Below, one piece after another: positions 1,078 to 53,133 of a DNA stretch of 64,000 nt. The notes beneath the pieces were generated by a model. That model saw nothing but the letters and a program-made list of their open reading frames with translations. It made no database searches and was not told where the DNA came from. The position numbers and the translations under genes are program-made. Within the stretch, counting starts at the first letter, position 1; every line of letters starts with the position of its first letter. The DNA is taken from positions 1 through 64,000 of the forward strand of contig CAVVKN010000005.1 of the NCBI GenBank assembly GCA_963748825.1, written 5' to 3'. Source of the stretch: Methanotrichaceae archaeon (GTDB taxonomy: Archaea; Halobacteriota; Methanosarcinia; Methanotrichales; Methanotrichaceae).

Positions 1078-2548
<1,471 letters not shown>

Positions 2549-2669
2549 AACGTTATGGGTATGCACAAGCATACCCACCCGTAACCAGTTGGAAGCTGAA
2601 AATGTCGACCGAGACCAAAAAGAGAACCAATTAGCCAGCTATTCTGATTATTAGCTGGGGCTAGTACCC

Positions 2670-2742
2670 GGGCTTGTAGCTCAGCTGGTAGAGCGCCGCC
2701 TTTGCAAGGCGGAGGCCCTGGGTCCGAATCCCAGCAAGTCCA
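2670..2742 (+). tRNA. tRNA-Ala(TGC) in the ITS
   Basis: GGGCTTG/CAAGTCC acceptor stem, anticodon loop TTTGCAA, T-arm GGTCCGAATCC. Confidence 0.97.
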
Positions 2743-2865
2743 ATTACAATGCACACATTGAGGCAGACTCGATGTGGAAGGGCGAAGGTCCGTTCTTGAC
2801 GGAGCGGTCCGATGATGCCGTGCACAAGCTTTGCGACCAGACGCTCACTGAGTTTAGTGGGGCAT

Positions 2866-5760
<2,895 letters not shown>

Positions 5761-5810
5761 GCTCCACTAAACTCGGGCGAAATCTGGTCGCAAAGCTTAA
5801 GGCACTTAAC

Positions 5811-5869
5811 CCAAGACCCCGGGTTACGGCCCGGGGAGGCACTAAACCGGTTCGATTCCGGTACTTGGA
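5811..5869 (+). ncRNA. tRNA-like (mini-tRNA) structure in the 23S-5S spacer
   Basis: CCAAG/CTTGG closing stem, CCCCGGG/CCCGGGG hairpin and T-arm ACCGG-TTCGATT-CCGGT immediately 5' of the 5S. Confidence 0.6.
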
Positions 5870-5872
5870 ATC

Positions 5873-5999
5873 GAGCATGGCGGCCAGAGCGACAGGGAAA
5901 CTCCTGAACCCATTCCGAACTCAGAAGATAAGCCTGTCCACGTTCTGCACTGTACTCAGATGCGCGAGCTCTCGGGAACTGTAGATCGCTGCCGTGCTC
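5873..5999 (+). rRNA. rrf: 5S rRNA
   Basis: GAGCATGGCGGCC...CCCATTCCGAAC...GCTGCCGTGCTC; the termini pair. Confidence 0.95.
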
Positions 6000-6553: not shown

Positions 6554-7582
6554 TTGACCGCAGATTCCTATGCCAAAGCCGTCATCGAAGCCGCCCTCTT
6601 CGCATCGGGCAGAACCCTCACTCCGCGGGAGCTGGCAGATCTTTCCACTCTCTCCGAAGAGCGGGCGCGGGCCCTGGCGGACGACCTGGCAGCGGAGTAC
6701 GCCACCCGCGACTCGGGCATCGAGATCAAGAGCATTGGTGAGGGCTATTCCATGCAGGTCCGCTTCGGCCTGGCCGGTCGGGTCCTCTCCTTCGCTCCAA
6801 AGGAAATCGAGGCTCCACTCATCAGAACCTTGGCCATCATCGCTTACAAGCAGCCCATCAAGCAGAGCGTTCTGGTGGAAATCCGGGGCAACAAGAGCTA
6901 CGATCACGTGAAAGAGCTGGAGGAAAGGGGCCTCATCAACGCGGAAAAGTTCAGCCGCACCAAGCTGCTCACCACCACGCGTGGCTTTGCCGATTACTTT
7001 GGCATCAGTTCCTGCAATCCCCAAGCCATCAGAAGAGCCCTTCTCAAAGATAAGAGGCTGGTGGGCGTCTCGCCCATGTACGAAAGCCTGGCCTTGCGTC
7101 TTGCCCTGGACTACATAGTAGTAAATCCCTACAAGCCGGAGGCGGAGGACCTGGAACGCCTGAAAGAGATTGAGCTTCTCGTGCTCGCCCCCGGCTACGC
7201 AGAAAGGGTCAAGCAGCACTACTCTGGCCAGATGCTGGAGGCGAGTGTTCGCACCCTTTCCCAGCTCAAGGAGAGCGCGGAGAGAATCTGCCAGGAGTCA
7301 GGCTGCGGGGATGTCGAGCCGCTAGCTGCCGAGGTGGACTCGCTGCTCAAGAGATTCCGGCAGAGGGCTAAAACCGCCCGGCCGGTTCGGCCGCTCACGT
7401 CCATGATCGAGGAGATCGCCCGCGACCTGCGCCTGCCTGTACAGGAGGGGGGACTGTCGGTCGCACCCGACTCTGCCGGATTGGAGGCCGATATCCTGGT
7501 GCCCGCTCACCAACCCTACGACATGGACATTCTGGAGAGAATTGTGCAGCGCTACGAAAAAATCCTGGGCGGGAAAAGTTAG
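6554..7582 (+). CDS. scpB: SMC-Scp complex subunit ScpB with long C-terminal extension
   Basis: IEAALFASG, TLAIIAYKQPI, EIRG and TTRGFADYFG motifs in the first ~160 aa, followed by ~180 extra residues. Confidence 0.9.
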   Translation: MTADSYAKAVIEAALFASGRTLTPRELADLSTLSEERARALADDLAAEYATRDSGIEIKSIGEGYSMQVRFGLAGRVLSFAPKEIEAPLIRTLAIIAYKQPIKQSVLVEIRGNKSYDHVKELEERGLINAEKFSRTKLLTTTRGFADYFGISSCNPQAIRRALLKDKRLVGVSPMYESLALRLALDYIVVNPYKPEAEDLERLKEIELLVLAPGYAERVKQHYSGQMLEASVRTLSQLKESAERICQESGCGDVEPLAAEVDSLLKRFRQRAKTARPVRPLTSMIEEIARDLRLPVQEGGLSVAPDSAGLEADILVPAHQPYDMDILERIVQRYEKILGGKS

Positions 7583-7656
7583 TGAAACCCACATGAGCAC
7601 ATTGCTCATGCAAGAAAGATGAAAAATGGATATATTCGCTAAGCCATTTAATTGCT

Positions 7657-7801
7657 TGATATGGGCGGTGAAGGCAGTCCGCCGTTTAGGGGCGTAGACC
7701 TCGTTAGTGAAACTAGCCAAATCCTGCGGATGCAAGAATGCGTCTGTTGAACGCGAATGCGAATGAGCACCCTTTGAGGATTAAGTTATCCGCCCATATC
7801 A
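7657..7801 (+). ncRNA. putative bridge RNA of IS110 #1
   Basis: Closed by TGATATGGGCGG/CCGCCCATATCA. Loop segments CCGCCGTTT (7679-7687) and GTTAGTGAAAC (7703-7713) match the element's own right and left flanks; ATGCGAA (7757-7763) matches its right end. Confidence 0.82.
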
Positions 7802-7815
7802 GGACGGGAATAATC

Positions 7816-9066
7816 ATGGAACTGCAGAGGAATAAAGTTTGTGGCATTGACGTGCACAAACGATTTCTGATAGCAACAATCCTTTCCCGAGACGGGAAGA
7901 AGGATACTCAACGTTTTAGCGTTACCCTGGAAGATCTCTTAAAATTTAGAGATTGGGTTATCGAAAATGGATGTGAACAGGTAGCTATAGAATCAACTGG
8001 AATCTATTGGCATCCTGTACACTCTGTTCTAGAGGGAAAGATCGATTTAATTGTGGCGAATTCCTACAAGATTAAGCATACTCCAGGAAGAAAGACCGAT
8101 GTCAACGATTCCGAATGGATTGCTGAACTTTGTCTCAATGGAATGATTGAGCCTTCCAGGATCTTTCCTAAAGATGATCGAGAGCTGAGAAGGTTGACCA
8201 GAGCGAGAGAAGGCTATGTTAAGCAGATGACTCAGGAAAAGAACAAGATCCACCAATCTCTCGATTCTGCTTGCATCAAATTGGCTTCAGTTATCTCTGA
8301 TATATTTGGCAAGTCCGGTATGTATCTCTTGAATTGCGTTCTAGAAGGAAGAGATATTGATGAGATAATTGAAGGCATTCCATCTGGACGACTCAAGAAA
8401 AAGGCGGATCAAATTAAAGAGTCTATCAAAAGTCGTCTAGAAATCTCCCAGGTCATTTTGATTAGGGGTTCTCTGAGCTTGATGAGATCCATCCAGGAGA
8501 GGATAGATGAGCTGGATGGAGAGATTAGTGCCAGAATTCAGTATCGCAAGAACGATTTAGCCATTGCTATGTCCATTCCTGGGACAGGGTTCGTCTCTGC
8601 TACTGCCATTCTGGCGGAAATTGGCAACTACATTGATTTCAAAAAGCCAGAGCAGCTTGCCGCATGGTGTGGCCTTGTTCCTTCTTTATATCAGTCTGCA
8701 GAAAAGACTATCCTCGGAGGAATAACCAAACAAGGCTCCAAGCATATTCGAAGAATGTTGATTCAAGTCGCCTATGCCATATCGCGAACCAAAGATTCGA
8801 AACTAAAGAAATTCTTCTTGAGGATTCAGGCCAAGAAGGGATCTAAAGTAGCAGCGGTTGCTCTGGCAAGAAAGGTTCTTTGCATTCTTCACCATCTTCT
8901 CATAAATCAAGAAATGTATCTTGAAGACAGAAATAAGAAAAATATGCGTCAGAAGCCCTTAACGCCGCCGTCTCCCATTGAGATGTCGATCCAAGAGATG
9001 ATTGACTGCATCGTCCGGGCAGGTTATGTTGTTACGAAGAGCGAGAGCAGAGGAGGATTCGGTTAA
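7816..9066 (+). CDS. IS110-family DEDD recombinase/transposase
   Basis: GIDVHK, IESTG and KTDVND (DEDD) plus the C-terminal AAWCGLVP..QS..GGITKQG motif. The likely start is MELQRNK; the ORF-track extension runs through the ncRNA. Confidence 0.95.
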   Translation: MELQRNKVCGIDVHKRFLIATILSRDGKKDTQRFSVTLEDLLKFRDWVIENGCEQVAIESTGIYWHPVHSVLEGKIDLIVANSYKIKHTPGRKTDVNDSEWIAELCLNGMIEPSRIFPKDDRELRRLTRAREGYVKQMTQEKNKIHQSLDSACIKLASVISDIFGKSGMYLLNCVLEGRDIDEIIEGIPSGRLKKKADQIKESIKSRLEISQVILIRGSLSLMRSIQERIDELDGEISARIQYRKNDLAIAMSIPGTGFVSATAILAEIGNYIDFKKPEQLAAWCGLVPSLYQSAEKTILGGITKQGSKHIRRMLIQVAYAISRTKDSKLKKFFLRIQAKKGSKVAAVALARKVLCILHHLLINQEMYLEDRNKKNMRQKPLTPPSPIEMSIQEMIDCIVRAGYVVTKSESRGGFG

Positions 9067-9090
9067 ATCAATTTTTCGGGTTTTTCATGC

Positions 9091-9235
9091 GAAACGGCGG
9101 CGGCTCACCCGCGCAGCAAGCTGCGGGGCATCCAAGGCGCCGCCGCATGAAGGTGGAACCAGGTTAAGCTGATCCCAACCTAAGCTGAATACGCATGCCC
9201 GTTATCCCCGATGCAAGCATCGGGGTATTACGATA
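9091..9235. repeat. palindromic MITE-like element (IS200/IS605-end-like hairpins)
   Basis: GGCGGCG...CGCCGCC encloses CCCGCGCAGCAAGCTGCGGGG; second hairpin CCCCGATGCAAGCATCGGGGTATT; related copies at 45978 and 53075. Confidence 0.65.
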
Positions 9236-31136: not shown

Positions 31137-32581
31137 TTGTGTGGGTCATCTCCTTGCCATTGGGCGAGCTTTTTCCTGGCCTGGTCGGCGTAGGGGCTTT
31201 CGATCTGCTTGAAGATTTCATAGGCAGCCTTTGTGAATTCCATGGCTTTCTCCCGCTGGTCTTGATCATCAAATATCTCTCCTAAATTGCCCAGCCAGGT
31301 TCCTTCATTCCTTCTGTCCCCTATCTCACGGGCGATGGCCAGAGCCTGCTGATAGTACTCGATTGCCTTGCGGGGCTCCCCTAGGTCAGAGTATGCAAGG
31401 CCCAGGCAGCCCAGATGTACACCTTCATTCCTTCTGTCCCCTATCTCATGGGCGATGGCCAGAGCCTGCTGATAGTACTCGATTGCCTTGCGGGGCTCCC
31501 CTAGGTCAGAGTATGCAAGGCCCAGGTTGCCCAGATGTACACCTTCATTTCTTCTGTCCCCTATCTCACGGGCGATGGCCAGAGCCTGCTGATAGTACTC
31601 GATTGCCTTGCGGGTTTCCCTTAGGTTAGAGCATACAAGGCCCAGGTTGCCCAGATGTACTCCTTCATTCCTTCTGTCCCCTATCTCACGGGCGATGGCC
31701 AGAGCCCGCTCATAATATTCGATGGCCTCGCGTCGCTCTCCCATATAATAATAGGCATTGCCCAGATTACCCAGGCGGCTTCCTTCACTCCGCCTATCTC
31801 CGATCTCGCGGGAGATCTTCAGAGCTTGCTCATGGTACTCGATTGCCTTGCGAGGCTCGCCCTGATGAGAGTAGGCACCGCCCAGGTTGCCCAGAGCGAT
31901 CCCTTCGCCTCGCCGGTCGCCGATCTCACGGAAGATCTTCAGAGCCTGCTCGTGGAACTCGATGGATTTGCGGGGCTCGCTTAGCAGGAAATGAATTACG
32001 CCAAGCTCGATCAATATATTTGCTCGCTCTTTCTGATCACGGATCTTCTCTAGCAAATACTCATTAATCCTCTGGCGCCTCAGCAATTCCTCCTTGTTCT
32101 GATAGCTGAGGCTTAATGGTTCGGACAGCGCCTCCACAGCTTGAAAGGCTGCCCCCTGATCCTCACCTTTTAGTATGTGATATCCTCCTCTATACCTCCA
32201 AAAGTCGGGTGCTTGCCAGATCACATCATCCAGAGCTGCTGGAGTCATAAAGATCAGGCTCGGGACCCCGGCATCGTAAAAAAGCTCGCGAAAGTTGTTA
32301 AGAGCATCTAGAACATCTTGGGCAAGCGTTTCGGGAAGAATCCAAATTAGGATCTCTTTTTCCTTCGGCTTAATGCTCCGAAGGTCGGAGATGAGGCTGT
32401 CTCCTTTCTCCACCGGCAGGATTCTGGCGGGAAATCGTGCCTTTATAACATCTATTACCTTCTCTCGATAAGCTGGAGAGGCGACAGTGCAGAGAATAAG
32501 GTTTCTTTTTCCCTGAGAGATCTCCAGCTCCGTGAGCAAAAGATCGATCTCATCCAGATCCTCTAGGGAGATAGGCTCCAT
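31133..32581 (-). CDS. TPR-repeat protein with degenerate NTPase-like N-terminal domain
   Basis: About six 40-aa repeats (LGNLG.AY..LGE.RKAIEYY.QAL.IAREIGDRR.EG); N-terminal LNNFRE...APDFW motif; start MEPISL overlaps the upstream ATPase. Confidence 0.9.
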   Translation of the reverse strand: MEPISLEDLDEIDLLLTELEISQGKRNLILCTVASPAYREKVIDVIKARFPARILPVEKGDSLISDLRSIKPKEKEILIWILPETLAQDVLDALNNFRELFYDAGVPSLIFMTPAALDDVIWQAPDFWRYRGGYHILKGEDQGAAFQAVEALSEPLSLSYQNKEELLRRQRINEYLLEKIRDQKERANILIELGVIHFLLSEPRKSIEFHEQALKIFREIGDRRGEGIALGNLGGAYSHQGEPRKAIEYHEQALKISREIGDRRSEGSRLGNLGNAYYYMGERREAIEYYERALAIAREIGDRRNEGVHLGNLGLVCSNLRETRKAIEYYQQALAIAREIGDRRNEGVHLGNLGLAYSDLGEPRKAIEYYQQALAIAHEIGDRRNEGVHLGCLGLAYSDLGEPRKAIEYYQQALAIAREIGDRRNEGTWLGNLGEIFDDQDQREKAMEFTKAAYEIFKQIESPYADQARKKLAQWQGDDPHK

Positions 32582-53041: not shown

Positions 53042-53133
53042 GTGATGTCCTCATGATCTTCGAGAAATATGGATTGAAACGGCGGCGCGCACCCACGCAG
53101 CCTGCAACTTGGAAGTTATTACCGGTAATCAAC

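Follow-up and report, generated by a model that had tools for sequence, protein, structure and literature searches.

Two insertion sequences, E1 and E2, situated in a 64,000-nt stretch of archaeal DNA (hereafter the window; it contains an rRNA operon at 1078-5997), are very probably IS110-family elements of an active type, characterised by an IS621-like bridge RNA, an inverted cargo, a core composed of AA with an overhang of the guide, and a second match between the RNA and the donor. The most notable result of the analysis is the targeting of CRISPR repeats: as judged from guides and flanks, the E2 subfamily appears to be aimed at the ATTGAAAC end of these repeats.

Elements E1 and E2

E1 occupies positions 7585-9095 (+ strand), with its bridge RNA upstream of the recombinase gene and with the stretch 7585-7815 constituting its left non-coding end. 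E2, also of the IS110 family, lies on the - strand at 29793-28195 and comprises the RNA (29714-29571), the recombinase gene (29556-28237), and the two copies of the core AA (29793-29792 and 28198-28197). The E1 recombinase (7816-9066, + strand) is 416 aa long and that of E2 439 aa, and the identity between them is 46%. Both comprise the Pfam domains PF01548 (E 4e-24 and 1.5e-21) and PF02371 (E 6e-23 and 1.4e-25), with the N-terminal RuvC-like DEDD domain and the C-terminal Tnp domain of IS110-family recombinases, and both have D12, E59, and S294, which are aligned with the catalytic residues of IS621; the GID, ExTG, and KTDxxD motifs align with IS621 as well. S294, aligned with the IS621 serine, is located in a GLxPxxxxS motif, in the form ..S-A rather than S-G. 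A phmmer comparison of IS621 from the PDB with the E1 recombinase (E 1.4e-12) aligns both domains. PF02371 ends at residue 333 of 416 in E1 and at residue 329 of 439 in E2, and the C-terminal 45-50 residues past the Tnp domain, with a motif like ..EMI..I..AGY.V.K, are kept across the clade, whose recombinases are 397-441 aa long; the C-terminal tails mentioned in a preliminary description of this DNA are therefore present in both proteins and conserved in the clade.

The clade is present in 98 of 301 Methanosarcinia genomes (search at E ≤ 1e-40), while viral contigs searched with the E2 recombinase by a method detecting close relatives only gave no relative. Elsewhere in the genome there are one further E1 copy, four E2-type copies, and one fragment. 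The second E1 copy (G000 contig C18:141571-142971, - strand) has the same scpB-like left flank as E1, and its left end is deleted, with ..GTGAAAC joined straight to GCGAATGCG, which corresponds to a loss of window positions 7589-7749; this copy is devoid of the target loop and of half of the donor loop. The break is located between two GAAC-like sites, as if the recombinase itself had made it. A lone E2-type left end of 329 nt, 92% identical, is found in G000 contig C23 (222035-222361), where the RNA region and the first 28 codons are kept without the recombinase gene. The window also contains a tandem repeat at 31302-31895 (4.9 copies of a 120-nt unit, 84% matches).

The bridge RNA

The E1 bridge RNA (7658-7800, + strand) comprises four helices: the closing stem formed by 7658-7668 with 7790-7800, two stems of the target loop (outer and inner), and the donor loop's inner hairpin. 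The 11-bp closing stem encloses both loops, each of them with an inner hairpin. On visual inspection, E1, E2, L025, and L033 could plausibly have an outer stem in the donor loop as well; it was left uncounted, its register shifting between subfamilies. The covariance model R1, built from the upstream regions of 34 relatives aligned as one structured RNA, gives 129.2 bits for E1 and 132.1 bits for E2. It has 103 hits, and the RNA lies upstream of the gene in nearly all of the 100 sources, the hit stopping 15 nt short of the start codon in E1 and 14 nt short of it in E2, and being upstream in other loci too. R1 also finds the RNA in Methanosarcina-type elements (36-76 bits), whose proteins are only 39-43% identical. 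In the alignment 96.8% of the cells are paired and compensatory changes occur at 21 of the 23 pairs (75 distinct rows); none of 500 shuffles reaches the observed level, and slid controls give 29-40%. A comparison with Rfam 15 gave no gathering-score match in the window and none at E ≤ 10 over 7570-7830.

Metatranscriptome contigs from four studies, at least 90% alike, cover 7581-9097 and break into unrelated flanks at 7579-7581 and 9091-9097; being contigs of relatives and not raw reads, they speak for presence, not for strand, start, ends, or level. One RNA run shows a contig depth of 293-430 over 7656-7783 versus 16-80 elsewhere, and three contigs of that run end at 7778-7789 and continue into adapter sequence, which is a hint only. 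One RNA-library contig (depth 11.3, shorter side 35 nt) joins 9085 to 7584 across CATGCG-AAAC-CCACATG with a single AAAC, as expected of a circular intermediate with abutted ends; a tandem copy would look alike.

Target guides and their order

The 3' target guide of E1, GTTAGTGAAAC (GTTAGTG-AA-AC; 7703-7713, + strand), consists of the left flank, the core, and a 2-nt overhang. It is identical to the left junction (7578-7588) and occurs twice in the window versus 0 expected. Its GTTAGTG part is the left target flank (LT; 7578-7584, + strand), which overlaps the stop codon of scpB, a gene located at 6554-7582 and identified by Pfam PF04079. The 5' target guide, CCGCCGTTT (7679-7687, + strand), is the reverse complement of the right junction AAACGGCGG (9092-9100), with 3 matches in the window versus 0.26 expected. 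In E2 the 5' guide GGCAAGTTT (29695-29687, - strand) faces the right junction AAACTTGCA, and the 3' guide GTGATTGAAAC (29669-29659, - strand), which fits CRISPR repeats at their 3' end, faces the left junction CCTATTCAAAC. In E1, E2, and all aligned members the guide for the right flank is situated 5' of that for the left flank. The preliminary description had recognised this order, and the matches of guides and junctions in E1 and E2 bear it out; its value as a possible mark of a new subtype is lost, since the same order has been published for IS1111-family seekRNAs (PMC11187229).

In 87 insertions the left flank matches the 3' guide at 4.15 of 7 positions on average, versus 1.87 for guides swapped between elements (500 trials, maximum 2.25), and in 74 insertions the best 9-nt match of the right flank to the 5' guide is 6.89 of 9 versus 5.04 (control maximum 5.42); these insertion counts overstate the evidence, because insertions of one genome and those of related elements are not independent. 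L032 and L033 are inserted next to a different, distant IS110-family gene (32% identity) of opposite orientation, and their right junctions do not fit their 5' guides. In L022 (G046:C1) a long tandem array of a ca. 15-nt unit (AGTGCAATGTCAATT-like) starts directly past the right junction.

The right target flank of E1 (9094-9133, + strand) is the start of a REP-like palindromic repeat (ACGGCGGCGGCTCACCCGC...) present in nine copies in the genome, and E1 appears, by these matches, to be aimed at that start. Six unoccupied copies read ..RGTGAAAC|GGCGGCGGC.. with a single AAAC. The insertion is scarless, the empty REP-like and CRISPR sites holding one copy of the core. The empty sites were taken from other REP-like copies of the genome; an empty orthologous E1 site downstream of scpB was found in none of 19 relatives, in which the scpB 3' end diverges past the stop codon and the REP-like repeat is absent. 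One unoccupied REP-like copy, at 53070-53100 of the window, reads GGATTGAAACGGCGGCGCGCACCC and combines an E2-type left match (GATTGAAAC) with an E1-type right match.

Core sequence

The left copy of the E1 core is AA at 7585-7586 (+ strand); it is followed by the first letters of the element, AC (RD1-2), which are matched by the guide overhang, and then by CCA (7587-7591, + strand). Both junctions were available for 74 distinct insertions, the left ones being anchored on the conserved CATG and the right ones on the match to the donor-loop 3' strand. AA is found at both junctions in 70 of them and AG in two, the latter representing one subclade, in which all three core-reading guide positions are altered to match. 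Past AA, 15 insertions have no further identity between the junctions, 43 have 1 nt of it, 15 have 2 nt, and a single one has 4 nt. Among 65 distinct RNAs, 61 end their 3' target guide in the two letters of RD1-2 (AC in 53, GA in 3, TC in 3, AA in 1, and AG in 1); counted by insertions, the overhang equals the donor RD1-2 in 71/74 and the target RT1-2 in only 15/74. By these counts the obligatory shared sequence appears to be the dinucleotide AA (AG in one subclade), not AAAC, and the overhang behaves, by analogy with IS621, like a handshake guide.

AAAC is seen at both ends of E1 and E2 because their targets start with AC, like the element. It is the 5' guide that sets the third letter, which is variable (T in L018-L022, G in L034) and so not obligatory. 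Since 59 of the 74 insertions share at least AAA, many members may have a 3-nt core; the crossover point within any shared run of letters is not readable from the sequence.

Element ends and the donor loop

The right end of E1, CATGCG with the core AA, lies at 9086-9093 (+ strand), and the RNA-run contigs lose their match to the window at 9091-9097. With the ends abutted, the donor junction reads CATGCG-AA-ACCCACATG.... In both E1 and E2, AAAC is followed at a distance of 3 nt by CATG at the left end and preceded by it at a distance of 2 nt at the right end. The subterminal inverted repeats of E1, ATGAAAAA (7619-7626, + strand) and TTTTTCAT (9081-9088, + strand), are 8 bp long, and those of E2, ATGGAAAACCACATA and its complement (29753-29739 and 28216-28202, - strand), 15 bp. 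Their distance from the AA core is 3 nt at the right end, while at the left end it amounts to 32 nt in E1 and 38 nt in E2. Both the placement of CATG and the offset of the repeats agree with the preliminary description. Asymmetric subterminal repeats of 6-15 bp are present in 54/54 representatives, 2-3 nt from the core at the right (6 nt in three) and 29-40 nt at the left, and the right non-coding end extends ca. 26-46 nt past the stop codon in most members.

The 3' strand of the E1 donor loop, ATGCG-AA then TG (7757-7765, + strand), repeats the right-end letters and the core. Its 7-mer is found downstream of the gene with 0-1 mismatch at the 74 junctions scored, and the donor loop tracks the right-end variants CATGGG, CATGCG, CATAGG, CATGTG, CATGGC, CATGGT, CATACC, CATGCT, and CATGCC; at the positions facing LD-1 and LD-2 the identity is 0.98 (56 representatives). 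Identity counts and swapped-partner controls were used because the mutual information between RNA columns and end positions is dominated by shared ancestry past the four strongest pairs. The donor-loop overhang equals RT1 in 53 of the 74 insertions and RT1 together with RT2 in only 24, a weak indication of a possible second handshake.

The 5' strand of the E1 donor loop, ATGCAAGAA (7730-7738, + strand), has a same-sense copy in the left end of the element, at 7608-7616 (+ strand). This box is situated 1-3 nt before the left inverted repeat. With up to 2 mismatches in 10 allowed, 37 of 54 representatives have it at element positions 20-29, and it covaries with the loop across subfamilies: the sequence is ATGCAAGAA, ATGCCCAAA, GCACCCAAA, ATAAATGAA, GCACCGAAA, or GCCCAGA, and a match of 8-10 nt is kept. 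A change of sequence with the match preserved indicates that identity is being selected for, as in the other guides. The preliminary description, according to which only one donor guide is recognisable, was in this respect incomplete, the right-end match being accompanied by a second, covarying one to the left end. Between the core and the box there is a hairpin, read from the sequence in E1 as CATGAGC-ACATT-GCTCATG (7592-7610, + strand), with perfect arms of at least 5 bp in 28/54 representatives and with differing arm sequences. The donor-loop 5' strand is not complementary to the letters adjoining the core, and no consistent complementary site was found for it inside the element.

Alternative readings

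The RNA was assigned to the strand of the gene because G-U pairs are frequent. Its transcription from the opposite strand, which would make the guide order only seemingly flipped, is barely credible: the helices are mirror-symmetric and the contigs of the RNA libraries carry no strand information, but the common G-U pairs (pair 22-114 in 46 distinct rows, 18-118 and 19-117 in 7 each) would turn into A-C, and the opposite-strand R1 hits reach 20-25 bits versus 91-148 for the full hits in the Methanothrix relatives seeding the model. Nor would the other strand bring back the IS621 order in element coordinates, because both guides switch sense together. Hardly more probable is a true 4-nt core, AAAC, with both strands exchanged over four letters. 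It would account for the presence of AAAC at the two junctions of E1, of E2, and of all copies lying in CRISPR arrays, and for the coverage of AAAC by both target guides; however, 15 of the 74 insertions share AA only, the left junctions of L018, L020, and L022 (..CTGCGG AA AC) differ from the right ones (..CATAGG AA TG), L015 has AAAT at the right, and letters 3 and 4 agree with the donor in 71 insertions and with the target in 15. Of the AAAC core put forward in the preliminary description, its coverage by both guides in E1 and E2 stands and its length does not. A 2-nt core flanked by chance identity had also been considered there; the two letters are upheld, while the flanking identity is not due to chance, the AC of the target being that of the element.

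A more serious alternative, though still a rather unlikely one, is that the likeness of the box and the donor loop is a duplication relic or reflects shared protein binding, with no RNA-DNA contact. The match is same-sense, unlike the prediction of the IS621 scheme, and has no consistent antisense partner inside the element, in keeping with such an origin; the 8-10 nt match kept while the sequence differs between subfamilies argues to the contrary. It is also improbable that the elements are ordinary IS1111-family members with the RNA region moved upstream, as in ISMtsp17. They do share with that family a top-strand-first guide order and subterminal repeats of 6-15 bp, but their recombinases of 397-441 aa exceed the 330-350 aa found there, BLASTP against the IS4321 recombinase aligns the C-terminal domain only (33% over 121 aa), whereas phmmer against IS621 aligns both domains, and R1 has no match in the IS4321 locus, its best score being 10.3 bits, inside the gene.

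Proposed mode of action

In the preferred reading, that of an IS621-like bridge RNA with an inverted cargo, the RNA would work as in IS621, while the cargo, i.e., the RNA gene and the recombinase gene, would be turned round with respect to the recombination sites. The 5' strand of the target loop would pair with one DNA strand of a flank and the core, and the 3' strand with the other DNA strand of the opposite flank and the core, running 2 nt further; this run-on would correspond to the donor and not to the target, in the manner of the handshake guide of IS621. From the point of view of the RNA, such a loop would be laid out conventionally, and it is in element coordinates that the right-flank guide would come first. 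The donor-loop 3' strand would read the right end and the core, and the 5' strand would match the box beside the left subterminal repeat instead of the core-adjacent letters. We infer that the box may be contacted as a second donor site of the same DNA strand, the hairpin acting as a spacer that brings it near the core; the strand-exchange chemistry is likewise presumed.

A bolder view, offered tentatively and with considerable doubt, is that of a third IS110 topology, in which the polarity of strand exchange would mirror that of IS621 and the donor would be read at two sites of one DNA strand, the right end with the core and the box at the left repeat, the DNA hairpin between them acting as a turn. 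One subfamily would in addition have become a specialist for type I-B CRISPR repeats, namely for their conserved 3' end of 8 nt.

Targeting of CRISPR repeats

The guide of the E2 subfamily, GATTGAAAC, matches the 3' end of CRISPR repeats. E2 itself is located in the window at a single look-alike site, CCTATTCAAAC, while contig C12 carries four E2-type copies inside an array of 55 repeats, each standing exactly past a repeat ending in GGATTGAAAC and in the orientation of the repeat. There, the guide GYGATTGAAAC fits the end of the repeat, and spacers form the right flanks. Directly upstream of the array, on the same strand, is a type I-B cas operon (coding for Cas1, Cas4, Cas8b, Cas7, Cas5, Cas3, and Cas6b). 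Array-inserted E2-type copies are also present in four other genomes, in three repeat families. In metagenomes (40 contigs with 37 scorable left flanks), 33 of the 37 flanks have ATTGAAAC as their end and 22 recur within the contig, and the flanks with E2-type insertions represent at least four repeat families. In the published texts searched, no account of the insertion of IS110 elements or bridge RNAs into CRISPR repeats was found.

The 5' guide, GACAAGTTTAT, is constant across genomes in the RNAs of the E2 subfamily (E2, L049, L050, L053, L065, and L067), and it cannot match the variable spacers that form the right flanks past AAAC. Two of the E2-type copies on contig C12 (108730-111797, - strand) are arranged head to tail, the right end ..CCATGGGAAAC being fused directly to AGGCCAAG.., the letters past the 3' guide in the RNA gene of the next copy; the guide-coding DNA itself thus served as a target or recombination site.

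On the bolder view given above, every repeat in an array would be a landing site, the array promoter, possibly together with cutting by Cas6b, would supply the transcript of the bridge RNA and the recombinase, and each insertion would split the immune memory of the host. A bridge RNA directed at the conserved repeat end would represent a naturally occurring example of an RNA-guided system that targets another's memory locus. Such targeting bears on array decay and on the conflict between mobile elements and host defence, and it raises the question of how elements of this kind are transcribed.

Comparison with known systems

Bridge recombinases are being developed into programmable tools for genome writing, and the rules of their action come almost wholly from IS621 and its close relatives. 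A widespread archaeal clade that keeps the 2-nt core and the handshake logic, yet inverts the cargo and reads the donor differently, shows which of these rules hold generally and which do not, and offers a system with an AA core.

An archaeal IS110-family element linked to CRISPR repeat sequences is already known, namely ISC1229 of Sulfolobus, bound by the CRISPR-repeat-binding protein Cbp1 (PMC10883916). There, the protein sites are located inside the transposon, and the part of that paper available for comparison reports neither insertion into CRISPR repeats nor a matching guide RNA.

As far as the portions of PMC11208160 and PMC11208158 compared here go, the clade resembles IS621 in having a recombinase with the DEDD and Tnp domains and a catalytic Ser, an RNA that has two internal loops and is encoded upstream of the gene, guides to both DNA strands that overlap on a 2-nt core, a 2-nt extension on the 3' strand of each loop, scarless insertion, and, for E1, a REP-like natural target. 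In IS621 the LTG (50-58) precedes the RTG (77-80), as the preliminary description correctly quoted, and the handshake guide extends the 3' guide of the loop and pairs with core-adjacent donor letters after strand exchange (PMC11208158). In the clade, in contrast, the guides come in the opposite order in element coordinates, AA stands in place of CT as the core, the subterminal repeats are asymmetric and 6-15 bp long (2-3 bp in IS621), and an 11-bp closing stem surrounds both loops. The donor-loop 5' strand of the clade matches, in the same sense, a subterminal box 20-30 nt from the core and not the core-adjacent letters. The recombinase is ca. 90-110 aa longer than that of IS621, with a conserved C-terminal tail, and the similarity is only at E 1.4e-12.

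The orders of guides in IS110 and IS1111 elements have been tabulated in a 2026 review. According to the sections of PMC11187229 consulted, in the IS1111-family seekRNAs tested the top-strand match lies 5' of the bottom-strand match, while in ISEc21 the bottom-strand match comes first, as in IS621. Top-strand-first order and subterminal inverted repeats of 7-17 bp are hallmarks of the IS1111 group (PMC11187229; PMC11208160), whose recombinases have 330-350 aa and whose RNA sits downstream of the gene, an upstream RNA region being noted for a few members, e.g., ISMtsp17 (PMC11187229). The clade shares with the seekRNAs of ISEc11, ISPa11, and ISKpn4 the guide order, the target-overlapping matches, and subterminal repeats of similar length, and differs in the upstream position of the RNA and in a recombinase of 397-441 aa. 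With ISEc21 it shares an upstream RNA region with matches to both target strands and differs in the top-strand match being first.

Among the traits ascribed to the IS110 group (Siddiquee/Durrant), the upstream RNA is found in the clade, and the bottom-strand-first order and the absence of repeats or their length of 2-3 bp are not; among those of the IS1111 group, it has repeats (6-15 bp) and the top-strand-first order, but neither a downstream RNA nor a protein of 330-350 aa with full-length similarity to IS1111. The upstream RNA combined with the IS1111-type order, repeats of 6-15 bp, and a recombinase of 397-441 aa appears to fit neither group as described in the published texts compared. 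No description of this combination was found in the published texts compared, nor was anything found on guide order in archaeal IS110/IS1111 elements; a model in the figures or supplements of Durrant 2024 or in a 2026 preprint (86 bridge-RNA models, 10.64898/2026.10.21.760802) may equal R1. The distinct bridge-RNA subtype suggested in the preliminary description thus retains as its ground the unmatched combination of features, together with the lack of an Rfam 15 counterpart, and loses the flipped order.

A bacterial relative, L101 (37% identity, 381 aa), is carried by the Bacillus thuringiensis plasmid NZ_CP074713.1 (215625-219149). Its left end, ..TAAAATAAAC|AATCATGAC, the box, and then ATGAAAAG, has the layout of the clade; R1 gives a weak hit upstream of the gene, with a 3' guide, GTAAAATAAAC, that corresponds to the left flank. 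Since L101 shows it, the flipped layout is probably not confined to archaea. In comparison with the known systems, then, the flipped order is an established feature, while the combination in which it occurs here, and the donor box, appear to be new.
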